Below are positions 3,212 through 37,768 of a DNA stretch of 64,000 nt, one piece after another; the stretch's first letter is position 1, and the number at the start of each line of letters is the position of its first letter. The notes beneath the pieces are model-generated. The model was given only the letters and a program-made list of their open reading frames with translations, did not search any database and was not told the origin of the DNA. Location of the stretch: contig JBGTAN010000034.1 in assembly GCA_041749855.1 (NCBI GenBank), forward strand, positions 5,457-69,456. The letters are read 5' to 3'. This DNA comes from Bdellovibrionota bacterium. Lineage in GTDB: Bacteria > Bdellovibrionota > FAC87 > UBA2466. Both the position numbers and the translations under genes were made by a program.

Positions 3212-4379
3212 CCCCTTGCTTCAATCACTCGTAGTACCGCTTGCGGGAGGGTTTGCTTTCGCGCTCATTGGCTACGCACTTTCCCGAGTCTTGCGTCGCA
3301 ACGATGTGGCAGATGTCTTGTGGGGCCTTGGGTTTATTGGCCTCGCCTTTTATCAGGCTAGCATTTCCGCCCCCTTAAGCTTTCGCGCTTACCTAGCTAT
3401 CAGTTTCATCTCGCTGTGGGGACTGCGACTCAGTCTCTACTTGGGCTTTCGCGTCTTTGGGAAGAAGGAAGAAGACGTGCGGTACGCTGGATGGCGCAAA
3501 GACTGGGGGCGCTCTGAACCCTGGATGGCTTTTCTGAAAGTGTTTGCTCTACAAGGGCTCATGCTCAGCCTAATTTCCCTGCCGGTCCTGCACATCATCC
3601 AGTCTCCCGCAACGCCGCTGACGCCGTGGGACTTCCTAGGTGCCGTGGTTTTCGTCATCGGTTGGTTTTTTGAAACCATTGCAGACGCCCAGTTGGCGCA
3701 GTTCAAGAGCAAACCGAAGAACAAGGGCGAAGTCATGCAGACTGGCCTGTGGGCCCTTTCGCGGCACCCGAACTACTTCGGAGAGATTCTCGTCTGGTGG
3801 GGACTTTTCCTGTTGAGCCTTTCGCTTCCGGGTGGCCTTGCGACCGTCGTCTCGCCTTTACTCATCACCTTCCTTCTGACCAAAGTCTCGGGCGTACCCA
3901 TGCTGGAAAAGGTGCTTTCGAAGAAAGGGCCCGCCTTCAAGCAGTACGTAAAGAACACGCCGGCGCTTCTGCCTTTTCGCAGTCATGAAGTTCTGGTCTT
4001 TTTTGCCATCGCAGGGACGCTTTGCATGCTCGACTTCCTCTGGCTGGGCGTTTTCTGGCAAGAGTTCTATCAAACTCAAGCAGCCCCTATCGCTCGACTA
4101 GACGCAGACGGCTGGGATGTATTGGGTTGGGCTGCAGCAGGCGTGTACCTATTCCTGGTGCTAGGAGTGCGAGTCCTTGCCGTCAAAAAGGAAATGTTAA
4201 CTTCCCTTTGGTACGGAGCGTGGCTGGGACTCAGTGCTTATGGCATTTATGAATTGACCAACTTAGCACTGGTTAAAGACTGGCCCATTGAGATGGCGCT
4301 CATGGATATTCTTTGGGGGCCGTTTCTTTGCGCAGCCGCTGCACTTGCGGGAAGCATCACGCTCAAACGCTTCAGTTAG
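3195..4379 (+). CDS. DUF1295/steroid-5-alpha-reductase-like membrane protein fused to a C-terminal polytopic extension
   Basis: Motif LSRHPNYFGEILVWWGLFLL is typical of the DUF1295/3-oxo-5-alpha-steroid dehydrogenase family. About 130 additional C-terminal residues contain further TM helices. Confidence 0.55.
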   Translation: MELLNNPLLQSLVVPLAGGFAFALIGYALSRVLRRNDVADVLWGLGFIGLAFYQASISAPLSFRAYLAISFISLWGLRLSLYLGFRVFGKKEEDVRYAGWRKDWGRSEPWMAFLKVFALQGLMLSLISLPVLHIIQSPATPLTPWDFLGAVVFVIGWFFETIADAQLAQFKSKPKNKGEVMQTGLWALSRHPNYFGEILVWWGLFLLSLSLPGGLATVVSPLLITFLLTKVSGVPMLEKVLSKKGPAFKQYVKNTPALLPFRSHEVLVFFAIAGTLCMLDFLWLGVFWQEFYQTQAAPIARLDADGWDVLGWAAAGVYLFLVLGVRVLAVKKEMLTSLWYGAWLGLSAYGIYELTNLALVKDWPIEMALMDILWGPFLCAAAALAGSITLKRFS

Positions 4380-4945
4380 CGAACCCGGTTCACAAAATCT
4401 GAACGCTTGTACCCTTGCGTCTCGGCAATCGCGAAGATCTCAGTCAAGACTTTCTCTGGCAAGGCCTTGCGGGCAAGCACCCATCCAAATTTACGTGAGG
4501 GAGATCCTACCAACGCCCAGCTGTATTTCCCGTCGATAACAGGTCCCAGACCCAGCACCCAGTAGTCTCCATCCCCGATTCCCATCCAGCGCAGCACGGC
4601 GAGCCCTGTGAAGTTTACCTTAAGCTTAGACCCTCCACTGCCATAGACAATCGTCGCGATGGCACGGGCTACTTCTTCTTTCGGTTGGTTCTGTGAGTTG
4701 AAACGAGAGCAAGTATTCTCCACCAGAACTTTATCTTCTTTGCTCGTGTACCTTGCGACCGTATTCATGCACTCGCCGTAATCCCCATCGCGATCGTCTT
4801 GAAACGAATTGGGGAGACGGTAGAGCTCTTGCCAGGCGCCTAAGTACTTCTCGAGATCCACAGAATCGACGGTCGTAACCTCTTTGGTCGGAGCCGCAAA
4901 TGCGAAACCTGCAAGCAGTAGGAATAATGAATAAGCCCGGATCAT
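4376..4945 (-). CDS. bacterial lipocalin (Blc-like), secreted
   Basis: Signal peptide MIRAYSLFLLLAGFAFA. The lipocalin N-terminal motif YLGAWQELYRLPNSFQ is present. It converges on the previous gene with a 4-bp overlap. Confidence 0.6.
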   Translation of the reverse strand: MIRAYSLFLLLAGFAFAAPTKEVTTVDSVDLEKYLGAWQELYRLPNSFQDDRDGDYGECMNTVARYTSKEDKVLVENTCSRFNSQNQPKEEVARAIATIVYGSGGSKLKVNFTGLAVLRWMGIGDGDYWVLGLGPVIDGKYSWALVGSPSRKFGWVLARKALPEKVLTEIFAIAETQGYKRSDFVNRVR

Positions 4946-5102
4946 TTTCCACTTTCAACGACTTCACCCGGGGGCGCTGCCGTTTCGACTGGGTGCGTTA
5001 TTTTGAATTCCGAAGGCTGAAAGACCCCCATTTGGTAAGTATCTTACCGAAAAGACACCCCTGTTGTGTAAAGATTCCGCAAGGTTGTTCCGATAGGAAA
5101 GC

Positions 5103-5810
5103 ATGAGTTCTCTGCCCATCGGTATCATTGGAATGTTTGCGATCGTGGCACTGAGCATGCTGGATGTCGAAGCACGCGTGTTCCTCAACTGGCACTCTAT
5201 CGGGCTAGTCTGGGGAGGGACGATTGCAATTCTTTTGGCCTCGTCTCCGTGGCATATCATCGCTACGCTTTGGAAAAACATGCGGGGGTTGTTTTCAACG
5301 ACCACTCAATTTGATGTCATCCACAGCAAACTCGTTGAGCTCTCCAAGGGCAGCCGCACCACAACAGGTGCGTCCCACCCGCTTATCCAGCGAGCCGCAA
5401 GTCTTTGGGAACAAGGCGTGGACCCCGAGCTATTTGAAACGCTCCTGCATCAATCGCTCGATGAAGCCAATCAGTCGTTGGAAGAAGCGGTTGCCGCATT
5501 GAGAAACCTGTCTAAGTATCCGCCCGCGCTGGGAATGACCGGAACGGTCATGGGTCTTGTCGTCATGTTTAGCAAACTCGGACCCGATCAAGCAGCAAAC
5601 ATGGGAGCGAGCCTTGCGCTTGCGATGACTGCCACTTTTTATGGTTTGATCCTTGCGAACGCGTTGATTCTCCCGCTAGCCGATCGTCTGGCTATGCAAC
5701 AGATTTCAACGACACGATCCAACGACTTCGTATTCCGCTCTCTGATACTCATTCACCGAGGCGAAGCTTCTTCTGTCATCGAGGACAAAGTTCATGCCTT
5801 CGCCGCCTAG
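5103..5810 (+). CDS. MotA/TolQ/ExbB-family proton channel protein (4 TM, MotA/PomA-like)
   Basis: 235 aa. The layout is two N-terminal TM helices, a cytoplasmic loop of about 90 aa, then two C-terminal TM helices (LGMTGTVMGLVVMF, ASLALAMTATFYGLILANALILPLADR). Confidence 0.75.
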   Translation: MSSLPIGIIGMFAIVALSMLDVEARVFLNWHSIGLVWGGTIAILLASSPWHIIATLWKNMRGLFSTTTQFDVIHSKLVELSKGSRTTTGASHPLIQRAASLWEQGVDPELFETLLHQSLDEANQSLEEAVAALRNLSKYPPALGMTGTVMGLVVMFSKLGPDQAANMGASLALAMTATFYGLILANALILPLADRLAMQQISTTRSNDFVFRSLILIHRGEASSVIEDKVHAFAA

Positions 5811-6462
5811 AACACGACGACGATTCGTTCCTACACGCAAGATTCGCGCAGAAGCGAGCGAAATGCACGGCTGGGCCGTGTCCTACTCCGATCTTCTGAT
5901 GGTGTTACTTGCGTTCTTCGTGCTGTACTTCAATTTTGGGGAAAAGAGCACGGCGAACATTCTTCGCAGCGTGGTGACGGACTTGGATAAAAGCGGACAC
6001 ACCCAAGCCGAAAGCGCAGCCGGAACGCAGGCCCCCAAACGCGGCACTGCTGCCATTCCCGATATGCGAAATGAGATGTCCCTCTCCGGATTTGTCGTCG
6101 ACAAGGCTTCTGTAAAAGGATCCATCACGGTGCACCTGCCCGACAACATCTACGGGCCCGGCGCCTACGAAGTAGGCAAAAAGCACCATGCACCGCTTAA
6201 AAAGCTACTCGAGATTCTATCTCCCTATAAGGACAGTGTGGAGTTGGTCTTCATCGGACACACGGATGCACAAGCCGTGCGCCAGGACAACCGGAAGGTA
6301 ATCGACTCCAATCTCGTGCTATCGAATTTGCGAGGTGCCCGAGCGGCCGAGTTCGCGCTTCTGCGCGGTTATAACCCTGCGTTGGTGAGTTCTGAGGGAG
6401 TAGGTCAGTTCCGTCGACAAACTAGGTCATTAAGCGTTCGTATCAATGAACGCAAAGACTAA
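5794..6462 (+). CDS. MotB-like stator protein with OmpA-type peptidoglycan-binding domain
   Basis: Basic N-terminus is followed by a TM helix with the conserved Asp (WAVSYSDLLMVLLAFFVL). C-terminal OmpA-like motif VFIGHTDAQAV. It overlaps the MotA-like gene by 17 nt. Confidence 0.75.
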   Translation: MPSPPRTRRRFVPTRKIRAEASEMHGWAVSYSDLLMVLLAFFVLYFNFGEKSTANILRSVVTDLDKSGHTQAESAAGTQAPKRGTAAIPDMRNEMSLSGFVVDKASVKGSITVHLPDNIYGPGAYEVGKKHHAPLKKLLEILSPYKDSVELVFIGHTDAQAVRQDNRKVIDSNLVLSNLRGARAAEFALLRGYNPALVSSEGVGQFRRQTRSLSVRINERKD

Positions 6463-7798
6463 AATGACAAAGCGAACCTTCATTCTGTCTACGCTGCTAC
6501 TGGTATTGGGGCAGGGCTGCTCGCAAGCACCCACAGACGATCCGGAAACTTGCCTGGCAGGGGCGACCTATCTGACCCATCTTCCCGTGGAGGCGCAGAG
6601 TGACTACCAAGGCGTCATCCCACAAGGGCTCATCGCGCCTGTGCTAGGGGATGTCTTTCCCTCTAATCGAATCTACTTTCATCCTTTTGTCGATGACGCT
6701 GGAGCTAATCCTGCCACGTTTTCTGAATTTGCAGTGACCGCCCCTGGCAACTTGGAAGTCAAAGCCGTGCGCATGCGCGAGTATGACTTGAGTGGCATTC
6801 GAGAGTACGCGATCTTTTTCAAACCCTGTTCCTCCATCCGCATTTACCTGGATCATCTTTCAAGCCTCTCGGCGGAGTTTCAAGACAAACTGAACGAGGC
6901 ACGAGAGAGTTGGAACAGCGGGGATAGTTCTGAGTGCATTCCCGGCAATGACGCTTTCTTAGGAGACTACAACGAGTGCTTGGGACGCTTTTATCGAGTA
7001 ACCGTCGACGCGCAAGACTTTCTGGGCACCGCTGGTAAATATCGCCCGCTTGCCCTGGGCGCGTACGATCAGGAAGAAGAAGTCCCCTACCTGACACCTG
7101 AGCATTACACCCAATCGCTGAGCGTCATCAGTGACACCGTTGGACTGGTGGTTTCTAGCCATAAAGTTTGGGAAGTGCTTTCCCCCACCTACCTTGACTA
7201 CAAACATGCCGCTTGCCCCCTGAACTATTATGGTCTCGATCCCACAGCGGCCTCTTTCCCCACGGTGCATTTTGTGGACCTAGCAGGAAACGCTTTTGCT
7301 GACTGGGACGGCACAAACTGCGGCACTTTCTTAGAGCAAAGCGCTGCCCGTGCTACCGGAAACTGGTTCCTCGAAGAAGTGATGGATGAAGTCCTTCAAA
7401 GCGACGGCGTGGGCTTGTTCGGAGCGGATCGCTTTGGCCTTTCACTGGCGCATGACTATGTGAACGAAAATGCCGGAGGAGACAGAGGTTATCCGGCCTT
7501 CTCATTCGGCGAAGCGATTGCCATCACGGGGGGCGGCCTCGCCGAGTTCCCCATGGGGCGGTACGATTTTGTCGTCAATAGTGCGGGAACGGTCAACCGC
7601 GATTTCAATAGCCTCATACTCAATACTGCCTATTGCTGGGAAGGTCTGACGCGGCGAGACGGCGCTTCCAGTTTCGCAGGTGCTGTCTGGCTGAAAATGA
7701 CCGACGCGCACACGCTCACTTTCCAAGCCTTTGATACGCCGGGGGATGACTGTAGTAACACCGCCCTCGATGGCTTCGCTCTCACCTTCATTCGCTAG
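6446..7798 (+). CDS. hypothetical lipoprotein (450 aa)
   Basis: Lipobox LLVLGQGCSQ. It overlaps the MotB-like gene by 17 nt. No recognisable domain. Confidence 0.5.
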   Translation: MNAKTKMTKRTFILSTLLLVLGQGCSQAPTDDPETCLAGATYLTHLPVEAQSDYQGVIPQGLIAPVLGDVFPSNRIYFHPFVDDAGANPATFSEFAVTAPGNLEVKAVRMREYDLSGIREYAIFFKPCSSIRIYLDHLSSLSAEFQDKLNEARESWNSGDSSECIPGNDAFLGDYNECLGRFYRVTVDAQDFLGTAGKYRPLALGAYDQEEEVPYLTPEHYTQSLSVISDTVGLVVSSHKVWEVLSPTYLDYKHAACPLNYYGLDPTAASFPTVHFVDLAGNAFADWDGTNCGTFLEQSAARATGNWFLEEVMDEVLQSDGVGLFGADRFGLSLAHDYVNENAGGDRGYPAFSFGEAIAITGGGLAEFPMGRYDFVVNSAGTVNRDFNSLILNTAYCWEGLTRRDGASSFAGAVWLKMTDAHTLTFQAFDTPGDDCSNTALDGFALTFIR

Positions 7799-7821
7799 CC
7801 CTGTAGTGGTACTGTTACCCC

Positions 7822-9468
7822 ATGCAAGATCCACAACAGCAGCGACCCACGCGGCTTCGTCTGGCGGTGATTGCTCTGTCTTTTGCGTGCATCGCTCTTT
7901 CAAGACAATGGTTCATTATCGCGGCAGGAGACGGCTTCGTTTACCCGACGCTCCAGCCGTCCTGGTTCGGACTTCTTCACCCACTCCTTGCCTGCGCGAT
8001 ACTTGGCACTGGAGCCTATTTGCTGCTGCTTTTTGCGCGTAACGCTCGCTCAGGAGTCTGGTTAGTCGCCACGCATTTGCTACTCGTGGTATTGCTCGTC
8101 CCTTCACTGCTCTTTCTACGTGCCAATACCAACCTTGCGGTTCACGTTCCCGCTCTTTCAAAAGCGTTCTACCAAAACCTCTTAGGTCCGACAGGATTTG
8201 CCCTATTCACCTTCGCCACTTTGGCAGCAGCGGTGGGTATCTTATGGAAGTGGCCTCTGGCTATTTCCCGCGGCATCGCCGTCGCACTCACTTTGTTCCT
8301 GCCCTTCGCCGGCTTACAGATCATTAAACTGATTTGGTATCTCCACCAATCAGACACCCTGCCGACGTCTCGGGAATTTGCTTCGGTGCCCAACCACCTT
8401 CATAAAGTAGTCGTCGTGGTTTTTGACGAGTTTGACTACGCTCTCTACCAGTCGCACCGAGCTGCGGGTGCGCGGTTTCCTCATTTGGACGCCTTGGACC
8501 GAAACGCCATCGCGTCCGACCAAGCGTATGCACCGGCGATTCACACGACTGCAACCATCCCTTCCTATTTTCTCGGCAAAAGATTGAAGAACCTCTGTCG
8601 ACTGCCCACCGACGACCTGCGTCTTACTTTCGAGGGTCAGGACAAACCCGTACTTTGGAGCGAACAACCCACTTGGGTTTCACAAAGCGCCGAAAGGCAT
8701 ATTCCGATGGGCCTTGTCGGTTGGTACCATCCTTACTGCAAACTCATGGGCAGCCATGCAAAGAGCTGTTTCGCCCTGGGTTCACCCTACATGCAGAGCC
8801 CCGCCTTCTCCGCCAAACGCGTGGGAGCCATACTCGCTTCTGCTTTTTCCCCCGGGACGCTGCCTATTTCGTACCATGCCCAAAGACATGAAATCGTGTT
8901 CAACCAAGCCAAAGGCGCTTTGGCCCGTGCTGATCTGAAACTAGTTTATCTCCACCTTTCCGTTCCGCACCTGCCGACCATTTTTGATCCAGCTACCCGT
9001 AGCGTCGTGGACGACCGCCAAGAAAATGAAGCGCAACAAAAGGTGGGGTACCTGGACAATCTCCACCTTGCCGATCAGGCGCTGGGGGAACTTATGGCAA
9101 CCAGTTCTACCCAGACCCATTGGATCGTCACATCGGATCACTCTATCCATGCTTGGCGCTGGCTTCCCAAAGACACTCCTGAGTCCCAGATTGATAGACG
9201 TATTCCGTTTTGGGTGAAGCTTGCTGAGGAATCAAAGCCTCTGCGAATTCGATTGCCGTTCAACACACTCTTGCTCAAAGATTTGAGCTTGGAGTTGGCA
9301 GAAGGCAGGATTCGTACGGGAGCCGAAGTGGAACGGTTTATTCGCGTTAATGCCTCCACGAGTCGCCATGTACTGCCTGCTCAACCTGTTGACCTGTGCC
9401 CTCACAAAGACGAGATGCACTCTTCCAGCGAAAGAGCCGATGGCAGCGAGAAGCCGCATGGCAGTTAA
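7822..9468 (+). CDS. polytopic membrane protein of the alkaline-phosphatase superfamily (sulfatase/LtaS/EptA-like)
   Basis: About five N-terminal TM helices. Catalytic-domain signatures VVVVVFDEFDY, AIHTTATIPS and WIVTSDHSIH are present. Confidence 0.55.
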   Translation: MQDPQQQRPTRLRLAVIALSFACIALSRQWFIIAAGDGFVYPTLQPSWFGLLHPLLACAILGTGAYLLLLFARNARSGVWLVATHLLLVVLLVPSLLFLRANTNLAVHVPALSKAFYQNLLGPTGFALFTFATLAAAVGILWKWPLAISRGIAVALTLFLPFAGLQIIKLIWYLHQSDTLPTSREFASVPNHLHKVVVVVFDEFDYALYQSHRAAGARFPHLDALDRNAIASDQAYAPAIHTTATIPSYFLGKRLKNLCRLPTDDLRLTFEGQDKPVLWSEQPTWVSQSAERHIPMGLVGWYHPYCKLMGSHAKSCFALGSPYMQSPAFSAKRVGAILASAFSPGTLPISYHAQRHEIVFNQAKGALARADLKLVYLHLSVPHLPTIFDPATRSVVDDRQENEAQQKVGYLDNLHLADQALGELMATSSTQTHWIVTSDHSIHAWRWLPKDTPESQIDRRIPFWVKLAEESKPLRIRLPFNTLLLKDLSLELAEGRIRTGAEVERFIRVNASTSRHVLPAQPVDLCPHKDEMHSSSERADGSEKPHGS

Positions 9469-11737
9469 GCGATGGTTGTTTAGCTTCAGTGCAATACTCA
9501 CGCTGACCGGCTTCCACGGTTGCTTGAACGACAAGGTTCACCAACAGACGCACCCGTCGACAGACGGCAAGCTCATTCGCTTTGTAGATACGCGTGCGGG
9601 AACCGGAGGGGCTCAATGGATTGCTGGACACAATACTCCCGCCGTCCAAGTCCCTTGGGGCATGGTCAAGCTAGGACCTGACACCACTTCCTTCGGCAAG
9701 GTCATGGGCCTCGGCGGCTACAGCTATAGCGATGTCAATTTGCGTGGCTTTTCACACACCCGCTTTGTGGGTGCGGGAGTCTACGGAGGCGGTGTCCTTT
9801 CCATCGTGCCAGCGAATACGCCCCTAGAGTTTGGAGCACTTCGCAAGTATCAACCGACCTTTTCCCACAGAAATGAAACCGCTGTTCCTGGCTACTACTC
9901 CGTGGCCCTCGATCGACTCGGGATTCAAGCGGAACTGACAACCACGGCGCGCGTCGGACTGCATCGTTACACGTTCACACTGAGTTCAGAACCCGTTCTG
10001 TATCTGGATCTCGGCGGCATGCTGGCTAGTGATGGAAAGAACACGGAACTATCGATCACGCTCACCGGTGGGAACAAAATCGAGGGGCACTTCTTACAAA
10101 ATGACGGCTTCTCTGGCCGTTACGGCGGACTGCACCACTATTTCGAAATGCACTTTCCGACCGGTTTCGTTTCACACCGCTACCTCACTGCTTCAGGGGC
10201 GTCGCTCACTTTGCCGGCGGGCGATCCCAAGCCGCTGTATCTTGAACTTCGGTTTGCAACAAGCGCACCGGTGGAGGTGCGCACAGCGCTTTCTTTCACA
10301 GGCGCGGCGGGAGCGGCAGCGAACTTTACTGCCGAAGCACCACTTGCCACTTCTTTCGATACCATTCAGGCAGCTACTCAAAACACGTGGGAAGCGTGGC
10401 TTGCACGCGTAGCCATCGCCACCTCACAAGAGGCCGAAGCTCAGAAGTTTTATACGGCGCTCTACAACTCCGCGCGCATGCCGACTCTTTTTGGGGACTA
10501 CGATGGAGCACTGAACGAATCCTATCGTGGTTTCGACAATGCCAATCACATCACGACGGGCTTTTCGTACTACTCCGACTTTTCCCTTTGGGACACGTTT
10601 CGAACCGTGCATCCACTTTACAATCTATTGGCCCGCACCGAGCAGCTGCACATGATCCAAAGCATGCACCGAATGGCGGAGCAGAGCGGGCGTTTTCCCC
10701 GATGGGCCGCAGGCACGGGACACACTGATTCGATGCTGGGCTTTCCGGCAGCGATCACCCTTGCTGAGAGCTACCGCAAGGGAATCACGACTTTCGATGG
10801 TGCGGGCGCCTATGCACTTTTGAAAAATCAAATGACAGCAGGTAGTGGCATCAGCGGAACGGAGTGCCTCGATTCTTACTCTGAACTGGGTTTTTGCCCC
10901 TCAGACGATGGGGGCACGACCGTCAGTCGAACACTGGAGTACAGCTGGGCCGATACCGCAATGGCAGGCTTTGCCGCGGCGCTCGGAAACTCCGCAGATG
11001 CCGACTACTTTACGTCACGGGCAGAAAACTTTCGCAATGCTTGGAGTGCCGCGGATCAGGCGTTCATTCCGCGAAAGCGTGACGGCCAGTACTTCACAGG
11101 TTGTCGCCTGGATATGCTTTCCTACTTCTCCCCGACAGGGTGTGCCAGTCACTTTACTGAAGGAAGCCCGCTTCAGCACCGTTGGGCATTGCCCACTCAG
11201 GCCGCAGCGACGAGTGCGCTTTACGCGGTCAGCGCCTTAGCGGAATTGGAAACCTTCTTCTTGCGCGCACCGAAGGGAATCGCAGCTCCGGTTCCCAACG
11301 GCTACTACTGGCACGGCAATGAACCGGCTCTGTTTGCCGCGGTCTATTTTAATCATCTGGGGCGGCCGGATCGCGCGCAGTATTGGACGGACTGGATTCG
11401 CCGAACGAAATACGACAACACGTCTGTTGGAATCGACGGGAACGATGATGGGGGAACGCTGTCCGCCTGGTTCGTGCTTGCTTCCTTGGGATTTTTACCC
11501 GGGCCAGGAACCACGACCTACGAGATTGTATCGCCTGCGTTCGAAAGTGCTTCTGTGAATTTGGGGGGAAGCACTTTACTCATCGTTGCAACCGGCGCGA
11601 CGCAGGGTAAACGCTTTGTGCGAGGCGTGACGATCAATGGCACCCCACTGACCGCACCCCGCTTTGACCATAGCTTGATTCAAGGCGGGGCTACGATGGA
11701 GTTTCAAATGGTAGAGGAGCCAGCCGCATGGCAGTAA
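9458..11737 (+). CDS. glycoside hydrolase family 92 (alpha-mannosidase-like) lipoprotein
   Basis: Signal/lipobox MAVKRWLFSFSAILTLTGFHGC. GH92-like motifs FSHTRF, HRYTF, GNEP and GNDDGGTLSAWFVLASLGFLPGPG..YEIVSPAF. The ORF extends upstream to 9350, but that part overlaps the previous gene. Confidence 0.65.
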   Translation: MAVKRWLFSFSAILTLTGFHGCLNDKVHQQTHPSTDGKLIRFVDTRAGTGGAQWIAGHNTPAVQVPWGMVKLGPDTTSFGKVMGLGGYSYSDVNLRGFSHTRFVGAGVYGGGVLSIVPANTPLEFGALRKYQPTFSHRNETAVPGYYSVALDRLGIQAELTTTARVGLHRYTFTLSSEPVLYLDLGGMLASDGKNTELSITLTGGNKIEGHFLQNDGFSGRYGGLHHYFEMHFPTGFVSHRYLTASGASLTLPAGDPKPLYLELRFATSAPVEVRTALSFTGAAGAAANFTAEAPLATSFDTIQAATQNTWEAWLARVAIATSQEAEAQKFYTALYNSARMPTLFGDYDGALNESYRGFDNANHITTGFSYYSDFSLWDTFRTVHPLYNLLARTEQLHMIQSMHRMAEQSGRFPRWAAGTGHTDSMLGFPAAITLAESYRKGITTFDGAGAYALLKNQMTAGSGISGTECLDSYSELGFCPSDDGGTTVSRTLEYSWADTAMAGFAAALGNSADADYFTSRAENFRNAWSAADQAFIPRKRDGQYFTGCRLDMLSYFSPTGCASHFTEGSPLQHRWALPTQAAATSALYAVSALAELETFFLRAPKGIAAPVPNGYYWHGNEPALFAAVYFNHLGRPDRAQYWTDWIRRTKYDNTSVGIDGNDDGGTLSAWFVLASLGFLPGPGTTTYEIVSPAFESASVNLGGSTLLIVATGATQGKRFVRGVTINGTPLTAPRFDHSLIQGGATMEFQMVEEPAAWQ

Positions 11738-12426
11738 GGCGTTTCATTTTGCTGGTGTTCGTCGTGGCCGCTTCCTGGTGTGAAGCAAGCGCCTTTAGGA
11801 CCGAGCTCCAATTTGGTTTTCCTGGTCTATTTTCGATACGATTGGACCGGCCGGTCTCCGAACGGTTGCGGGTGGGGGCAAGCTTTGGCGCTTTGCCGAT
11901 TTCCTTTGTGTTTCCCTTTTACCAACCCCAAGTCACTGGCGCAGATTTAAGTGACGAGTACGACTTGGTTTTGGAACCCACCTTGCACGCACTTTCAGCA
12001 GGCGTTTTTGTAGAATGGACGCCAGGTGCTCGCTCTTCTTTCTTTCGATTGGAACTACTGGCAAACGTGCTCGACGCTGCCGCCCACGTCGATATCTTAA
12101 ACAAAGAAACGCGCGCTCAGGCGCCTTATATGGATGTGCAAATCACTGCAACCTTGCCGCGGGTCGCTCTGACTTATGGGGGACGCCTTACCAATGGCAC
12201 CGGGATGAACTGGTACGGCGGAATCGGAGTGACGGGCCTCATCGGACAATCCGTTTTCGTGCAAACTTCGGGACCTGCTGCCGCTTACTGGAATGCGAAT
12301 CCTTCCGGTCAAGCCAGCGTCCAAGATGGAATGGATGGACTTCGAAACGAGGTCACTGCGCAGCTTACTTCCAGTTTTGCTTCAATGAGAATACTCCCCG
12401 CTGCTTGGATTTCTGCGGTTTGGTAG
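11728..12426 (+). CDS. hypothetical secreted/outer-membrane protein
   Basis: Signal peptide MAVRRFILLVFVVAASWCEASA. The ATG overlaps the GH92 stop. Confidence 0.45.
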   Translation: MAVRRFILLVFVVAASWCEASAFRTELQFGFPGLFSIRLDRPVSERLRVGASFGALPISFVFPFYQPQVTGADLSDEYDLVLEPTLHALSAGVFVEWTPGARSSFFRLELLANVLDAAAHVDILNKETRAQAPYMDVQITATLPRVALTYGGRLTNGTGMNWYGGIGVTGLIGQSVFVQTSGPAAAYWNANPSGQASVQDGMDGLRNEVTAQLTSSFASMRILPAAWISAVW

Positions 12427-12531
12427 TCAATGGTTGAGTCAGTCATTTCCTCAGGAAATGGCAATTGTTGCAGGTTATCGTCGACAGATATTTAACTCAC
12501 TGGGCGATTTTCTGATTGCCAACCCCAAGGC

Positions 12532-12552
12532 AAATACATACATATGTATTTA
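12532..12552. promoter_or_regulatory. near-perfect 21-bp palindrome aaatacatacatatgtattta immediately upstream of the HNH gene RBS
   Basis: Read directly in the sequence. It ends about 3 nt before GGAGG (12556-12560) and 14 nt before the ATG at 12567. Confidence 0.35.
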
Positions 12553-12566
12553 TCCGGAGGGCTCGC

Positions 12567-13454
12567 ATGCAAACTTCAAATTCACTTCACCAACAGGCCG
12601 TCACGCTCGCAAAAGACTACTTGAGGACCGAAGCCAAACTACTCAAGGTACTCGTAGAGATCTACAAGCGACGGTCCTATTTGCCTCTCGGGTATAGAGA
12701 CCTCTATGACTACAGTCAGCGTGCATTGAAGCTGAGCAAAGCGCAGTCCTATTATTTTTCAAAAGTTGCCGACAAATCCCAAGAGGTGCCGGCACTTCAG
12801 AAAGCTGTGGAGGCAGGTGAACTTAATATTTCTCAAGCGCGACGAATTGCACCGGTAGTCACAGTTGAAAATGTTCAGGAGTGGATTTCGAAGGCTACTT
12901 CTCTGCCTCAAAAGGATTTGGAACTTGCAGTAAAGAAGGAACACCCTGAAATGGCGGTTAGAGAGAGGGTTCGTCCCATTGCCGAGAACCGAATGGAATT
13001 GCGCTGCGGAATTTCCGCCAGCTTCGACAACGAGCTGGCGCGAATCAGGGATATTGTTTCCCAGATGAAACGCTCTCCCGCCTCCATCGAAGATGCCCTA
13101 GAGTTTATGAAGGAGGCTTTTCTAGACAGGCATGATCCTATCCGCAAGGCAGAGCGTTCAAAACAAAGGAGCACCAGGGACGAAGATACTACCCCTCCGC
13201 TTCTTCGCAGAGCGGCTCGCGTTTCTACCCCTATTCAGACTGGCAGGACCCCCATTCCCTCTGCGGTAAAGCATTCGGTCCGCTTGCGAGATGGGCAAAG
13301 GTGCGCTTTTAAATCTCTAGAAGGAATACGCTGCGAGCAATCCCGCTGGACCGAGATGCATCATCGCGTGCCCGTAAGCAGGGGCGGTCAGCACTCCCTA
13401 TCAAACATCACTACTCTGTGTTCAAAGCACCATCGCTATTTACACGGGCACTAA
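12567..13454 (+). CDS. HNH endonuclease domain protein (DUF222-like N-terminal region plus C-terminal HNH)
   Basis: The C-terminus HHRVPVSRGGQHSLSNITTLCSKHHRYLHGH is an HNH motif. RBS GGAGG lies 6 nt upstream. GC is roughly 45%, against about 55-58% in neighbouring genes. An alternative TTG start exists at 12516. Confidence 0.7.
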   Translation: MQTSNSLHQQAVTLAKDYLRTEAKLLKVLVEIYKRRSYLPLGYRDLYDYSQRALKLSKAQSYYFSKVADKSQEVPALQKAVEAGELNISQARRIAPVVTVENVQEWISKATSLPQKDLELAVKKEHPEMAVRERVRPIAENRMELRCGISASFDNELARIRDIVSQMKRSPASIEDALEFMKEAFLDRHDPIRKAERSKQRSTRDEDTTPPLLRRAARVSTPIQTGRTPIPSAVKHSVRLRDGQRCAFKSLEGIRCEQSRWTEMHHRVPVSRGGQHSLSNITTLCSKHHRYLHGH

Positions 13455-14071
13455 AAGGCGAAGTTGAAACTCAAGGAATGTAAGAATGAGTTTACAAAGC
13501 GAACCGATCCCGCATGAAAGAGAATATTGCCGTGCAGTCCCACACTGATATCTTCGCGCACCCAGTAACGGGTACCTAAGTTTGCGGTCACAAACGGGAA
13601 GTGGCTGGCTGGATTTCCTTTGAAGTAAGAGGCGTCATACGTTCCCGGCCGAAGATTCAAAAGATAGAACTGGATACCCAAGAACGGCTCCCAGTTTCCC
13701 CACTTTGCGCTGACAGAGTGGCCGGCAAAAAAGGAAAATCCGCCGGCTAACCATGCCGCCCCTGCTTCTACCGATGCAAATCCAGTTCCCGCAGCGCTTT
13801 TCCAATAAGCGTGATGCAGCCCCAACCCCAAGGTGCGCATTTCAGTAGTGAGGGACAGCGTCGTGTTCTCGTCTGCTCCATAACGGACTTTACCGAGTGG
13901 AAAACCAATATAGTTTCCAGAAGCATCTGTGTACCCCGTCCATTGAACGGTGGTTTCCCACTGCCCTGCCCCCACGGGTCGGGCGGGAGCGCCACTCGTT
14001 AGAGGCGCAAGCGCGCAACCGACCAGCAACAGATTCAAGGTGCAGAACAGAGCTCGGTATAGAAAAACCAT
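13451..14071 (-). CDS. hypothetical lipoprotein / outer-membrane protein
   Basis: Signal MVFLYRALFCTLNLLLVGCALA. Composition is Gly/aromatic-rich and beta-barrel-like. Confidence 0.45.
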   Translation of the reverse strand: MVFLYRALFCTLNLLLVGCALAPLTSGAPARPVGAGQWETTVQWTGYTDASGNYIGFPLGKVRYGADENTTLSLTTEMRTLGLGLHHAYWKSAAGTGFASVEAGAAWLAGGFSFFAGHSVSAKWGNWEPFLGIQFYLLNLRPGTYDASYFKGNPASHFPFVTANLGTRYWVREDISVGLHGNILFHAGSVRFVNSFLHSLSFNFAF

Positions 14072-14123
14072 CGCTCTACTTTAGAGGGGCTTAGCGAAAC
14101 TTCAAGAAAAGCCGCTTCCGGAA

Positions 14124-14453
14124 TCAGTCGGCGGTCCAGGTAGCTGCGCTACCCGTGCACGCGGCTTCCTGCGCGGCCGCGTTGCCCGTGTACGTGCGGC
14201 TTTTCACTTCGGAAGCGGTACCTGCCTGGCTGACGCATACACCGAAGCTCAAATCAGTAGGACATGCTGCCTGCAACGTACCGCCCAGTGCTGTGCAGAC
14301 GGTTTCGTACTGCCCTGCCCAAATCGCGCCCGTGTACTCGGTGCAGGCGACGTTGACGCTAGAGGCGACGATCAAACAACTCTTGTTGGCAGTGCCGCAG
14401 CTCGTCAACCCGACACCCAATAGTACGGTCAAACCCAATAGTAGTTTGTGCAT
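14124..14453 (-). CDS. small cysteine-rich lipoprotein (8 Cys)
   Basis: Lipobox LTSCG. Eight Cys residues in a mature part of about 90 aa. Confidence 0.45.
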   Translation of the reverse strand: MHKLLLGLTVLLGVGLTSCGTANKSCLIVASSVNVACTEYTGAIWAGQYETVCTALGGTLQAACPTDLSFGVCVSQAGTASEVKSRTYTGNAAAQEAACTGSAATWTAD

Positions 14454-15082: not shown

Positions 15083-18000
15083 TTAGGAGCGATCTTGAAC
15101 TAGCGAACCCGCTCGCGCGAACAGGCTGTAGACACAGGGGACAACGAACAGCGTCAGCGCCGTGGATACGATAACGCCCCCGATAAGCGCGAGCGCCATA
15201 GGAATTCGGCTTTCGGCTCCAGGACCGATGGCGAAGGCAGCGGGTAGAGCACCAACAACGGTCGCAATCGATGTCATTAAAATCGGGCGCAAACGCATGG
15301 GACAGGCCTCAACGAGCGCATCGTTGGCGGCCTTTCCCTTTTCACGCACTTGGTTAGTGAAATCGACGAGCAGAATGGAATTCTTCTTTACGATACCCAT
15401 GAGCAAGATCAGTCCAATCATCGAGTAAATATTCAAAGAGCGATTGCCTAGATAAAGCGCAAGAAACGCCCCGGTCACACTAAACGGCAGCGCTATCAAC
15501 ACGGTGATCGGGTGAATGAAGCTGTTAAACTGAGAACCCAGAATCATATAGGAAACCACAAGCCCCAGAACGAGGGCAAACAGCAAACTTTGAGTGGATT
15601 CTTCCGAAGTCTTAGCACTCCCGCTCACGACCGCTCGATACCCTTCGGGAAGCACGCGTTTAGCAACGGCTTGTACGGCTTCCATCGCCTTACCCTGAGA
15701 ACTTCCTGGAGCAATATTTCCATAAACACTGATGGCCCGCTCTCTATCTTCACGTGAAATGGCTTGTAGACTCGCTTTTTCCTGAATACTCACGACCTCA
15801 GAAAGACGAATCAATTCCCCGCGGTTGTTACGCACGAACAGGCGCTTTATGTCCTCAGGTTTATTGCGATCGCCCGACTCCAGTCGCACGCGCACATCGT
15901 ATCGATGACCGCCTTTGGAATACTTTCCTGCCAGCACGCCGCCCATCATCGAATTAATGGTCTGCGCGATTTCATACACACTGACGCCGCGTTCTCGAGC
16001 TTTTTCTCGATTGGGGACGACTTGGATTTCAGGCATTCCCGTTCGGTAGTTTGAATCGACATCAACGACGGTTCCGGTTTTTTCCAACTCCTCTTGCATG
16101 GTTTGAGACAGCGCAATGAGCTTGTCGAACTCCGGGCCTCGGACGGCAAACTCGACGGGATAGCCACGTCGCGCTCCCAGCCCCGACAGTGAAGGATCTT
16201 GAACGAACCCCTTCACATCCGGAATCTTCTTCAGCTCTTCCCGGAAAACCCCTGCCAATTCCTGCTGGGTGTAAGGTCGCTTCGTTTTGGGGTTGATGCT
16301 TCGAGCCTTCCGGGCTTTAAGCGTGAGAAAAAGCATCCCTGAATTGACTTCCCCACCACCAAACCCTCCGATTGCCCCAAAATATTGTTCCACGTCGGGA
16401 TGCTTCATAAACATGGCCTCGGCCAGCTTAAACTTCTCATCCGTATAACCCAGGGAAGAGCCCACGGGCGTTTGTAACCGCACCATGAGACGCGAGATAT
16501 CCTGAGCCGGAACAAATTCTTTCGGAAGTAGCCGAATCAAACCAAAGCTTGCCGCGCACACGCCGATAGAGACAACCACCACTTTCCACCGATGCCGAAG
16601 AACCGCGCGTACCAGGCGCTGGTAAACCGCCGCAGAGGCAGTAAAGGCGTGTTCCACGAATTTGCCCAAGCGAGTCGTACGCTCTCCCGTGTCCATAAAG
16701 GAAGCGCAACGCATGGGAGTGAGTGTGAGCGCTTCTAAGAGCGATAGCGCCACTGCGACGGAAAGCGTGACTCCGAACTGGAAGAAGTACTGACCAATCA
16801 CTCCGCTCATAAATGCGACAGGAAGGAAGATAGCGATAATGGCTGCCGTTGCTGCCATGGCGGCAAACGTAATTTCCCTGGCACCTTCCAGTGCCGCCTG
16901 TTCTCGCTTCTTTCCCATCTCCGCGTGACGAACGATGTTCTCAAGCACCATGATCGCGTCGTCCACGACAATCCCAATAGCAAGAGAGAGCGCGAGCAGC
17001 GTAAAGGTATTGAGCGTGAAACCCAGTGCATAAAGCACGATGAAGGTACCCACTACGGAAGTGGGAATCGCTAAAATGACGTTCAGAGTGGCAGACCACG
17101 AACCCAAGAAAAGCCAACAAACCAAGGCAGTCAGAATGGCGGATAGAACAAGCGTAAAATTGAGTTCATGGACCGCTTCTTCAATCGCTTGAGTCGAATC
17201 GAAACGTACCCCAATTTCAGTCCCCGCAGGTAAGTCCTTTTGGACCTCCTCCATACGCGCTTTCGCTGCATGGGCCACTGACACTGCATTGGAACCGGGT
17301 TGCTTTTTTATTCCCAGACCGACGGCAGGCTTGCCATTGGTTCTACTCTTGCGACGCACATCCGCGAGCCCTTCTTCGACGCGTGCGACCTGGCTCAGTG
17401 TGATGGGCCGATAATTGGGAGCACCTCCACGACGGGCAATGGAGATTTTTCCAAAATCTTCCACAGAAGGCGCCTCACCCATGGTGCGGATGTTGAATTC
17501 CTTATCCGCGGTTTCTATTCGACCCGCTGGCAGCTCGGCATGTTCTTGCTGAATGGTCGTCACGACGTCGCCAGCCGTCAAAGCGTACTGACTCAACTTG
17601 TCGGCGGACAACCAGACGCGCAAATTGGGATCGACATAACCGCCCATGAACACTTCGCCAACCCCTTCAATGGTCGCAAAGCGGTCCTTCACGCGATCCC
17701 GCACAAAGATCATGAGCTCCTGCTCAGTCATCTTATCCGAGCTAACGGCCATCCACAGAATCGGACTGTCTTCAGGATTCGATTTTCGAACCGTGGGCGG
17801 CTCCATCTCTTCGGGCAGCCGTCGCATGGCCTGCGCCATAGCGCTTTGCAGTTCTTGGACTGCTACATCGCTATCTTTCTTGAGGTCAAATTCAACGGTA
17901 ACGTAGGCGCTCCCCGTTCGAGCCGTGGAGGTGATGCTAAGCACCCCCGGTACTGTCATAACGGCGGATTCGATAGGATCCACCACATCCACTTCCATCA

Positions 18001-18172
18001 CTTCAGGGGCGGCGCCTTCTAGTTCAAGACTGATGGAGATAACGGGGAACGTGACATCGGGAAGATTGCTCACTCCCATTCGATTGAAGCTGATCCCGCC
18101 GAACACGATAAGTGCGGCCATTATCATCCAAGCAAACACCGGATTACGAATGGATATGTCGGAGAGTGTCAT
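15083..18172 (-). CDS. RND (HAE1/AcrB-type) efflux transporter
   Basis: 1029 aa with 12 TM helices and two large periplasmic loops. The AcrB/CzcA family pattern is present throughout. Confidence 0.9.
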   Translation of the reverse strand: MTLSDISIRNPVFAWMIMAALIVFGGISFNRMGVSNLPDVTFPVISISLELEGAAPEVMEVDVVDPIESAVMTVPGVLSITSTARTGSAYVTVEFDLKKDSDVAVQELQSAMAQAMRRLPEEMEPPTVRKSNPEDSPILWMAVSSDKMTEQELMIFVRDRVKDRFATIEGVGEVFMGGYVDPNLRVWLSADKLSQYALTAGDVVTTIQQEHAELPAGRIETADKEFNIRTMGEAPSVEDFGKISIARRGGAPNYRPITLSQVARVEEGLADVRRKSRTNGKPAVGLGIKKQPGSNAVSVAHAAKARMEEVQKDLPAGTEIGVRFDSTQAIEEAVHELNFTLVLSAILTALVCWLFLGSWSATLNVILAIPTSVVGTFIVLYALGFTLNTFTLLALSLAIGIVVDDAIMVLENIVRHAEMGKKREQAALEGAREITFAAMAATAAIIAIFLPVAFMSGVIGQYFFQFGVTLSVAVALSLLEALTLTPMRCASFMDTGERTTRLGKFVEHAFTASAAVYQRLVRAVLRHRWKVVVVSIGVCAASFGLIRLLPKEFVPAQDISRLMVRLQTPVGSSLGYTDEKFKLAEAMFMKHPDVEQYFGAIGGFGGGEVNSGMLFLTLKARKARSINPKTKRPYTQQELAGVFREELKKIPDVKGFVQDPSLSGLGARRGYPVEFAVRGPEFDKLIALSQTMQEELEKTGTVVDVDSNYRTGMPEIQVVPNREKARERGVSVYEIAQTINSMMGGVLAGKYSKGGHRYDVRVRLESGDRNKPEDIKRLFVRNNRGELIRLSEVVSIQEKASLQAISREDRERAISVYGNIAPGSSQGKAMEAVQAVAKRVLPEGYRAVVSGSAKTSEESTQSLLFALVLGLVVSYMILGSQFNSFIHPITVLIALPFSVTGAFLALYLGNRSLNIYSMIGLILLMGIVKKNSILLVDFTNQVREKGKAANDALVEACPMRLRPILMTSIATVVGALPAAFAIGPGAESRIPMALALIGGVIVSTALTLFVVPCVYSLFARAGSLVQDRS

Positions 18173-36889: not shown

Positions 36890-37768
36890 TTAAGTATGTC
36901 GCAGCCCTAGTTCAATGGTCATTTCACCCAGGTCAGACTCAAAAGGCAGAACTAGCGAAGGACTGGGTGTGAGTGGTCGAACCCGCAAGGCAGGTCCACT
37001 GAATATGGTGGGAAGCGTTTTTCCGAAAAGATGCCCTTTCTCGTTCAACGCTTTTTTGGCCTGACCGAAGATAATGTTGAGTAGCTCACCGCAACCATCC
37101 TCGACGTCCGTGGTGATGGAATCGTATTTCTCTCCCAGCATACGGTTCATAATTTCAAGAAACGTTTCTTCCTTGAATCCGAGAGCAACGGATCCACTCA
37201 CCTTTTTGCTTAGCATGCCCATTGAAGCCGCAATGTCGTAACCAGGTTTCGCCTGGGCATTTTTGACACTGGCTTTTCCAGCCTTGAACTCCGTCGAGCA
37301 CTGAATCCCCAGTGTGCGAATCGCTGCATCTTGAAAGATAGAGATCATCAGCTTGTCCAACTCCGCATCATCTACCCCGCGCTTCTTGGGAGCAGTGCTT
37401 TTTGCATTCCGCTTTTTGGTGGTTTGGAGAGTTTCGAAAACGGCTTCCAGCGACTGCACGGCCTGTGGCTTCGAACCGGGATCGAAGGACAGCACGCTCG
37501 ATTTTGTTCCGTCTGCAATACGAATGAAAAAGAAAGTATGCCGACCGGCGATATCCAAAAGGTTCTGGCACAGTGCCTTCCAGGCGTCAGCACTCAGCTT
37601 CTGATCTTCCATGTCCACGACAATGGCCGACATACCGGGCGTTCCCGGGCTACCCAACTGGTCTGCCATTTGTTGTGGAATCGAACTGAACTCCGCCATG
37701 GACGACTTAGATGAAATGAGAAGAATCAGCATTCCTTGGCGTTGCACAAACTGGATGTTCGTAGACAC
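36890..37768 (-). CDS. CheX/CheC-like chemotaxis phosphatase domain protein with N-terminal extension
   Basis: The C-terminal region GELLNIIFGQAKKAL resembles the CheX/CheC E..N..G motif. Confidence 0.45.
   Translation of the reverse strand: MSTNIQFVQRQGMLILLISSKSSMAEFSSIPQQMADQLGSPGTPGMSAIVVDMEDQKLSADAWKALCQNLLDIAGRHTFFFIRIADGTKSSVLSFDPGSKPQAVQSLEAVFETLQTTKKRNAKSTAPKKRGVDDAELDKLMISIFQDAAIRTLGIQCSTEFKAGKASVKNAQAKPGYDIAASMGMLSKKVSGSVALGFKEETFLEIMNRMLGEKYDSITTDVEDGCGELLNIIFGQAKKALNEKGHLFGKTLPTIFSGPALRVRPLTPSPSLVLPFESDLGEMTIELGLRHT

Follow-up and report, generated by a model that had tools for sequence, protein, structure and literature searches.

The 64,000-nucleotide stretch of contig JBGTAN010000034.1 analysed here (hereafter the window), from a Bdellovibrionota bacterium (assembly GCA_041749855.1), contains a tightly packed array of six plus-strand genes, g1 to g6, at positions 5103-12426. 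The array is headed by a MotA/MotB-type stator pair and continues with genes for a lipoprotein-like protein, a membrane enzyme of the alkaline-phosphatase superfamily, a GH92 (glycoside hydrolase family 92) mannosidase and a small outer-membrane (OM) beta-barrel. It is probably a mosaic, specific to this lineage, of four units that evolved independently, namely motAB (g1-g2), g3, g4 and the GH92-g6 pair (g5-g6). This reading is based on the contexts of the units in relatives, on the co-occurrence of separate units in GCA_964519985.1 and in assembly ERZ27296139, and on a rearrangement detected relative to a neighbouring AcrB gene, taken together. A previous sequence-only reading had suggested that the stator and the enzymes encoded behind it might belong to one energised envelope machine. 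A scan with the MotA alignment, using one genome per species, gave 80 further loci. Of the 86 MotAB loci compared, 76 are Bdellovibrionota-type, and homologues of g3, g4, g5 and g6 were found within ~10 kb of none of the 86 (tblastn and family hidden Markov models, HMMs). Conversely, g3, g4 and the GH92-g6 pair occur elsewhere without MotAB. The synteny is unique to this genome, an outcome named beforehand as speaking against the proposal, and one energised six-gene machine is therefore not supported.

All six open reading frames (ORFs) were confirmed in the ORF table, as were the overlaps and the single gap previously described for them. The array starts with motA (g1, 5103..5810, 235 residues), encoding a MotA/PomA-like stator A subunit assigned through PF01618 and its alignment with PomA and MotA, and motB (g2, 5794..6462, 222 residues), encoding a MotB-like B subunit recognized by the MotB_plug family and by alignment with the MotB of 6ysf. 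g3 (6446..7798) encodes an orphan Cys-rich lipoprotein-like protein of 450 residues that matches no Pfam or PDB entry, while g4 (7822..9468) encodes a polytopic membrane enzyme of the alkaline-phosphatase superfamily with 548 residues, identified by PF00884 and a set of invariant residues. The product of g5 (9458..11737) is a GH92 exo-alpha-mannosidase with a signal peptide and a conserved Cys, matched by PF07971, PF17678 and TIGR01180, and that of g6 (11728..12426) is a small OM beta-barrel of 232 residues recognized in its AlphaFold2 (AF2) model. Domain, alignment and AF2 evidence thus bears out, in essence, the identities first read from the sequence (stator pair, lipoprotein, sulfatase-like enzyme, GH92 and OM protein). 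Neighbouring genes overlap by 17 nt (g1/g2), 17 nt (g2/g3), 11 nt (g4/g5, with the g5 start at 9458) and 10 nt (g5/g6), and the sole gap in the array, of 23 nt, separates g3 from g4. The candidate starts of g5 are 9350 (the longest ORF), 9440 and 9458, the last of which is backed by a 56%-identical GH92 protein in locus L100 with a signal peptide of equal length and the LTGFHGCLN motif present in both. Similarly, the g3 start at 6446 is backed by the N-terminal 'MN.K' kept in homologue P0003.

The 157-bp intergenic region upstream of motA (4946..5102, plus strand) presumably harbours the promoter, and an AGGAAA Shine-Dalgarno sequence is positioned 5 nt 5' of the motA ATG. A scan of 4946..5102 for the sigma-70 consensus gave no match, and in a consensus scan of 4300-14200 no internal promoter-like or terminator-like site exceeded shuffled expectation. 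The overlaps and the absence of such internal sites make a single transcript plausible, and the six genes are probably co-transcribed as one array. Tight co-directional packing is, by itself, ordinary operon architecture. Of the single translationally coupled operon proposed earlier, the packing remains compatible with one transcript, whereas the gene order is not conserved among the 86 MotAB loci. The six genes have a uniform GC content at third codon positions (GC3, 0.53-0.60), which gives no hint of recently acquired foreign DNA or of a chimeric assembly, and a search for repeats and mobile-element scars around the cluster and at its junctions returned short chance matches only.

In its closest relatives the stator pair belongs to a five-gene module. 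The canonical order of this module is a TPR lipoprotein (177-205 residues), MotA, MotB, a protein of ~500 residues that belongs to no Pfam family and is here termed Y500, and an OM-barrel-like protein of ~200 residues, OMP200. The module is found with the nearest MotAB relatives of the window (MotA 71% and 60% identity). It was defined from loci L005-L076 and is represented, at least in part, at L005 (1708-5709), L008 (888-4989) and L011-L076. With HMMs built for the TPR, Y500 and OMP200 families, at least one canonical partner was located in 72 of the 76 Bdellovibrionota-type loci (~95%), TPR being present in 69, Y500 in 61 and OMP200 in 60. The module is colinear in 49 loci, while in 11 the Y500 gene is found on the other strand, most of these displaying a divergently transcribed OMP200-Y500-TPR unit beside motA. 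Y500 is ~7 kb distant in 2 loci, and 4 Bdellovibrionota-type loci carry no partner in the DNA examined. The window resembles the five-gene module in that its MotA and MotB are bona fide family members with all conserved positions kept. In contrast, the TPR, Y500 and OMP200 genes are missing, with no match at E ≤ 10 among the window ORFs of at least 40 residues, and four unrelated genes follow motB. Literature searches found no description of the TPR-MotA-MotB-Y500-OMP200 module. A separate observation concerns Bdellovibrionota bacterium FG-1, where three MotAB pairs are gathered within 10 kb (L012, 10001-19760), one in a five-gene module and two as opposite-strand pairs; this locus is a possible experimental system in which the functions of MotAB paralogues could be separated.

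The separate units also coexist within single assemblies. In GCA_964519985.1, contig 1 carries a g3 homologue that stands alone (L001), and contig 53 carries a canonical MotAB module (L011). Similarly, L101, which holds a GH92-g6 pair, and L008, which holds a canonical module, share assembly ERZ27296139. The gene for an AcrB-type RND transporter at 15083..18172 on the minus strand, 54% identical to the AcrB of L009 and L010, provides a synteny anchor on the right side of the array. Evidence of REARRANGEMENT is found in these two loci, where AcrB lies ~0.5 kb upstream of the canonical module with a 190-residue opposite-strand ORF between them. In the window, motB and AcrB are separated by ~8.6 kb of unrelated genes (g3, g4, the GH92 gene, g6, an HNH gene, a gene for a 206-residue protein and a small minus-strand ORF), and motAB is inverted relative to AcrB. 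The presence of an AcrB orthologue beside the canonical module in L009 and L010 therefore points to a rearrangement in the window lineage.

The stator pair itself is well preserved. g1 matches MotA_ExbB (PF01618) with an E of 4.8e-20; its residues 6-228 align with PomA 7-236, and it has full-length matches to PomA (8brd and 8bri) and MotA (6ysf). Four transmembrane (TM) helices, the full-length alignment and the channel Pro and Thr residues identify it as a MotA/PomA-type A subunit, with the equivalents of PomA P151, T158, T186 and P199 invariant across the g1 family. A comparison of g1 with solved structures at E ≤ 0.001 left the ExbB, TolQ and ZorA chains all unmatched. g2 scores 31.2 bits against MotB_plug (cutoff 24) and displays a single TM helix, whose Asp, in SYSDLLMVLLAFF, aligns with the channel Asp of the 6ysf MotB; this Asp, in the context SYSD32LLMVLLAFF, and the plug together characterize g2 as a MotB-type B subunit. 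The OmpA Pfam score of 14.9 bits is below the 27.2 cutoff, although the GHTD and N..LS..RA motifs still align with the C-terminal domain of the 6ysf MotB. All positions conserved in at least 90% of the family are kept (27/27 in g1 and 18/18 in g2, 45/45 together), so the window MotAB is intact and presumably functional. Family HMM scores of 290 bits for MotA and 229 bits for MotB place the pair inside the Bdellovibrionota family, the proteins being 71% (MotA) and 55% (MotB) identical to those of L005. Judged by sequence, the window MotAB is thus a member of a Bdellovibrionota-wide stator family derived from PomAB.

The most distinctive feature of this family is located in the segment through which flagellar A subunits contact FliG. 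A deletion of 7-9 residues, at approximately residues 85-90 of g1, removes the segment holding PomA E96/E97 (MotA E98) from g1 and from 75 of 87 family members. The equivalent of PomA R88 is present in g1 and is not conserved across the g1 family, which therefore lacks the FliG-contact charges of PomA (R88/E96) and of Escherichia coli MotA (R90/E98). The E96/E97 segment is retained in the second MotA paralogues of L012 and L080 and in Elusimicrobiota MotAs, indicating that the deletion is family-specific. None of the flagellar NCBIfam equivalogs was passed, the best MotA-type score being 92.5 bits against a cutoff of 341 and the best MotB-type score 41.2 against 283.

The window MotAB can be compared with several known stator systems. 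It shares with flagellar PomAB/MotAB the 4-TM A subunit, the invariant channel Pro and Thr residues, the TM Asp, the plug and the overlap of motA with motB, and may share with them an OmpA-like anchor. In contrast to those stators, it carries the FliG-contact deletion and remains far below the flagellar equivalog cutoff (92 against 341 bits), and its family is accompanied by conserved genes for a TPR lipoprotein, a FliG_C-like membrane protein and an OM barrel in place of flagellar genes. The family also shares 'FIT'-type (TGI4-type clade) stator features as described in PMC12505986. Like Zorya, Tol-Pal, ExbBD-TonB and AglRQS-Glt, it pairs an ion-driven channel of the MotA/ExbB superfamily with a single-TM B subunit and has been proposed to energise a process in the envelope. 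Unlike Tol-Pal and ExbBD, it scores just 22.9 bits against TolQ (cutoff 221) and 20 against ExbB (cutoff 135), and its B subunit is of the MotB type and not of the TolR/ExbD type; no TolA, TonB, Pal, TolB or Glt genes were found near the window MotAB. Zorya was considered and rejected, since PADLOC found no ZorA match, g1 has just 235 residues and is without a long tail, and ZorC and ZorD are missing. In the PADLOC search g1 and g3-g6 were unmatched, and g2 gave generic weak matches to ZorB (E 2.6e-6). Together these scores support the view, already taken in the sequence-only reading, that the pair does not conform to the textbook stators of the flagellar, Tol, Exb, Agl and Zorya systems.

Among the usual partners of the family, Y500 may be the protein upon which the stator acts. 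Y500 is built of a signal or TM anchor, a periplasmic stretch of ~130 residues, a TM helix and a cytoplasmic part of ~300 residues, and its C-terminus is weakly but consistently similar to FliG_C, the torque-helix domain, over residues ~420-480 (for example in L005, 3609-5123, and L013, 2265-3782). In a search of the PDB with a Y500 profile of 35 sequences the top four matches are all FliG, at E values of 0.01-0.03, and Pfam FliG_C is matched by 3 of the 35 members, with a best E of 1.5e-7. These similarities suggest that Y500 is a membrane-anchored FliG-like client of a non-flagellar stator. It is proposed, with moderate confidence, that Y500 is the client of the stator family, in a complex that would span the envelope and include the TPR lipoprotein and the OM barrel. 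The notion of an uncharacterised energised envelope machine, which is not supported for the genes of the window, may well hold for the MotAB family together with the TPR lipoprotein, Y500 and the OM barrel. In one locus (L023, 3041-5314) MotB and Y500 are read as a single ORF of 757 residues. This fusion was rejected as 'Rosetta-stone' evidence and is judged a probable artefact, produced by a frameshift or by read-through where the two genes usually overlap by 4 nt, since a true fusion would reverse the membrane topology of Y500.

The genes that follow motB have histories of their own. g3 gave no match to Pfam or the PDB, also when searched as a profile at E ≤ 10, and its homologues are restricted to 4 in 5.8 billion clusters, with 45-48% identity. 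The protein is Cys-rich and displays a conserved Cys after the signal peptide, and a canonical lipobox is seen in its homologues. Its AF2 model, computed from a 5-sequence alignment, has a pLDDT of 34 and is unusable. In L001-L003 the g3 homologue is monocistronic, flanked by a fatty-acid desaturase gene on one side and a MatE gene on the other, both on the opposite strand, and no MotAB is located near any of the 4 homologues.

The assignment of g4 to the Sulfatase family is marginal in Pfam (PF00884, 28.1 bits against a cutoff of 25) and is reinforced by the architecture of the protein. Approximately five N-terminal TM segments occupy residues 15-175, and an alignment with 22 homologues reveals D202, D205, T242, H378, H383, D439 and H440 as invariant. 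These residues form the metal-site and nucleophile pattern of the alkaline-phosphatase superfamily, of the Thr type as in LtaS/EptA enzymes. Weak PDB matches are to S1 sulfatases and to the lipoteichoic acid (LTA) primase 4uop. The polytopic N-terminal domain, the sulfatase-fold domain, the metal ligands and the Thr nucleophile are thus those of an LtaS/EptA-type enzyme. g4 shares with LtaS, EptA/PmrC and OpgB the N-terminal TM domain, the C-terminal sulfatase fold, the metal-binding Asp and His residues and the Thr nucleophile, and differs from them in its marginal Pfam score (28 bits) and in fitting no characterised subfamily. Some 23 homologues are known, the nearest of which (40-41% identity) are monocistronic, with rplS on one side and a methyltransferase gene on the other, and without MotAB.

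The last two genes of the array form a conserved pair. The GH92 assignment of g5 is dominated by the matches to PF07971 (E 1e-112, 377.8 bits) and PF17678 (E 3e-47, 161.7 bits), and it is reinforced by a TIGR01180 score of 402.8 bits against a cutoff of 249.55 and by a full-length match to the Bacteroides GH92 structure 6f8z. The HGNEP and GNDDGG..SAW motifs are both found in g5; after BT3990 (PDB 2wvx), we take HGNEP to be the GH92 acid motif and GNDD..SAW the base and Ca-site motif. The protein, with its signal peptide and conserved Cys, is probably a lipoprotein. g5 thus resembles the Bacteroides GH92 enzymes (BT3990 and 6f8z) in the full length of both GH92 domains and in the acid and base/Ca-site motifs. 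In contrast to Bacteroidota GH92 genes, it resides in a Bdellovibrionota-type genome with a small OM barrel gene directly downstream, and not in a polysaccharide utilization locus with SusC/D. The AF2 model of g6 is a beta-barrel (pLDDT 89, pTM 0.78), and the protein has a signal peptide and an aromatic C-terminus (...SAVW). Its top Foldseek matches are CarO (E 3e-6) and Thermus TtoA, with TM-scores of just 0.39-0.45, a resemblance at the level of the fold and not of the sequence family.

The g6 family comprises 27 relatives among 1.84 billion representatives. In every readable context (L100-102, L103 and L104) the g6 homologue is directly preceded by a GH92 gene that it overlaps by 4 nt, the GH92 partners in L100-L104 being 52-56% identical to g5, and MotAB, g3 and g4 are all missing from these contexts. 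In L104 the pair stands as a two-gene unit with opposite-strand genes on both flanks. The conservation extends to a 206-residue protein without a Pfam match, encoded outside the operon at 13451..14071 on the minus strand, which is 45% identical to the product of L100 10116-10721 and 35% identical to that of a gene adjoining GH92-g6 in L104. The conserved block thus spans 9458-12426 plus 13451-14071(-) in the window, 6065-10721 in L100 and 7896-11222 in L104. In L100 the pair follows adjacent genes for a GT2-DUF6311 fusion protein and a hexapeptide acyltransferase. A metagenome scan with GH92 returned 5 short loci only, whose neighbours were uninformative. Bdellovibrio makes a mannosylated lipid A carrying alpha-mannose, according to the account of Schwudke et al. 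(2003) given in PMC2233673. Because lipid A of Bdellovibrio bears alpha-mannose, the GH92-g6 pair could be a unit that trims mannose from lipid A or from a glycan, mannosylated lipid A being a speculative substrate of the GH92 enzyme. It was also observed that the start regions of g5 (9452-9471) and g6 (11722-11741) match in 18 of 20 nt (AGCCGCATGGCAGT..) and that both proteins start MAV(K/R)R. This match could be due to chance or to a small duplication of the translation-initiation region.

The region between the array and AcrB contains one further gene of interest, which encodes an HNH-endonuclease-domain protein of 312 residues from a TTG start (12516..13454, plus strand) and is located between g6 and the gene for the 206-residue protein. 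It has the lowest GC3 of the region (0.52), an AT-rich palindrome is present at 12534-12553, and the syntenic position in L100 is occupied by an unrelated gene encoding 304 residues. The HNH gene may be an insertion tied to the local rearrangement. Elsewhere in the window, a CheX-domain protein is encoded at 36890-37768(-), which hints at a chemotactic and motile organism, and a protein of 911 residues with 13 DUF5122 beta-propeller repeats is encoded at 50377-53112(-). No flagellar structural genes were found among the window ORFs scanned with Pfam, namely all those flanking the cluster plus 20 of the larger ones elsewhere up to ~53 kb.

Several observations weigh against a mosaic of independent units. 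The tight packing without internal signals makes co-expression probable, and co-expression can reflect function. The g3, g4 and g6 families are very rare, leading to a thin sampling of close relatives. The 64 kb of the window lacks the canonical partners and, with them, the presumed client of the stator, and the view upstream of motA spans just 5.1 kb of a 102-kb contig. Since the partner operon of L033 and L043 lies 7-10 kb upstream and 5.1 kb is visible here, the partners might sit just outside the window. Finally, the last gene of the array, like that of the canonical module, encodes a small OM barrel. A homology of the g6 family to the OMP200 family was considered and rejected, at an hhalign probability of 35% over 55 columns.

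A rival reading is that the stator was recruited, at least in this lineage, to energise a new envelope-remodelling module made of g3-g6, replacing its Y500, TPR and OMP200 clients. The overlapping or translationally coupled ORFs, in which internal signals went undetected, and the lack of canonical partners in the window fit such a recruitment, as do a MotAB pair that is fully intact and hence still in use and a set of products spanning the inner membrane, the periplasm and the OM in the manner of the canonical module. However, the linkage is seen at none of the 86 related MotAB loci and in no context of a g3, g4 or g6 homologue, g3 and g4 are stand-alone genes elsewhere, and domain scans detect no FliG-like, TonB/TolA-like or ZorA-tail-like domain in g3-g6. 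Furthermore, no enzyme of the g4 and g5 classes is known to require an input of proton motive force (PMF). Recruitment is thus very unlikely, and just as little probability attaches to the mechanism that it implies, in which ion flow would drive the remodelling of an envelope glycolipid or glycan that contains mannose, and the stator would energise enzymes in place of a rotor, TonB/TolA-type arm or defence effector. As g3-g6 contain nothing that resembles a stator-engaging element, neither a mechanical nor an energetic link between the stator and their products is supported. An assembly chimera would also explain a unique gene order, the contig being of an uncultured-type source and its exact arrangement having been seen nowhere else. 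The coding density is nevertheless seamless over every junction, with overlapping starts and stops in frame, GC and GC3 are uniform, the junctions are without repeats, and synteny with relatives is kept on the right side (the 206-residue protein gene and AcrB), making a chimera extremely improbable.

A flagellar role for the pair deserves greater weight and is still unlikely. The window MotAB would then be one of several flagellar stator paralogues, driving a flagellum and co-transcribed with envelope genes by accident. Bdellovibrio bacteriovorus reportedly possesses three motAB pairs, said to have been described by Morehouse and co-workers in 2011. Genomes of Bdellovibrio and like organisms (BALOs) contain 1-4 motAB pairs, each isolated from the flagellar clusters (PMC11323537). 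Such a role is also favoured by the best matches of the pair, which are to flagellar PomA, MotA and MotB over their full length, including the plug and a putative OmpA-like domain ('FIT'-type features, PMC12505986), and by the CheX gene of the window, which points to a chemotactic, motile organism. In contrast, the family is without the PomA E96/E97 segment, kept in the L012 and L080 paralogues and in Elusimicrobiota MotAs, and does not conserve R88. All the flagellar equivalog cutoffs are missed by far, and 72 of the 76 loci have partners of non-flagellar appearance, including the membrane-anchored FliG_C-like protein.

A mosaic of independent units thus remains the probable explanation of the array, and the following organization is proposed. 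MotA and MotB would form an ion-driven, peptidoglycan-anchored stator, by homology a rotary unit with a 5:2 MotA:MotB stoichiometry, that was probably parted from its usual partners through the local rearrangement. Its client would be encoded outside the window, most likely Y500, TPR and OMP200 and less likely a flagellar rotor. g3 would represent an orphan periplasmic lipoprotein unit, and g4 a membrane-embedded transferase or hydrolase that may use its Thr nucleophile for phospho-group chemistry on a substrate at the periplasmic face. The GH92 enzyme and its dedicated OM barrel would constitute a two-gene unit that probably trims mannose-containing glycans of the envelope or of prey. One probable transcript would then co-express these independent functions.

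Had the stator and the enzymes formed one machine, the array would represent a new class of PMF-energised enzyme machine, which the comparative evidence makes unlikely. The window instead provides a natural 'partner-less' copy of MotAB, useful mainly as a test case, and the pair of a GH92 enzyme with an OM barrel constitutes a second, smaller lead given the alpha-mannose on the lipid A of Bdellovibrio. The main lead is a widespread and uncharacterised Bdellovibrionota stator family, derived from PomAB, in which the FliG-contact segment has been lost and a FliG_C-like membrane protein is a linked partner. If the five-gene module is indeed a non-flagellar stator-rotor pair, it would bear on how flagellar torque generation arose or was co-opted, as well as on the mechanics of the envelope in predatory bacteria.

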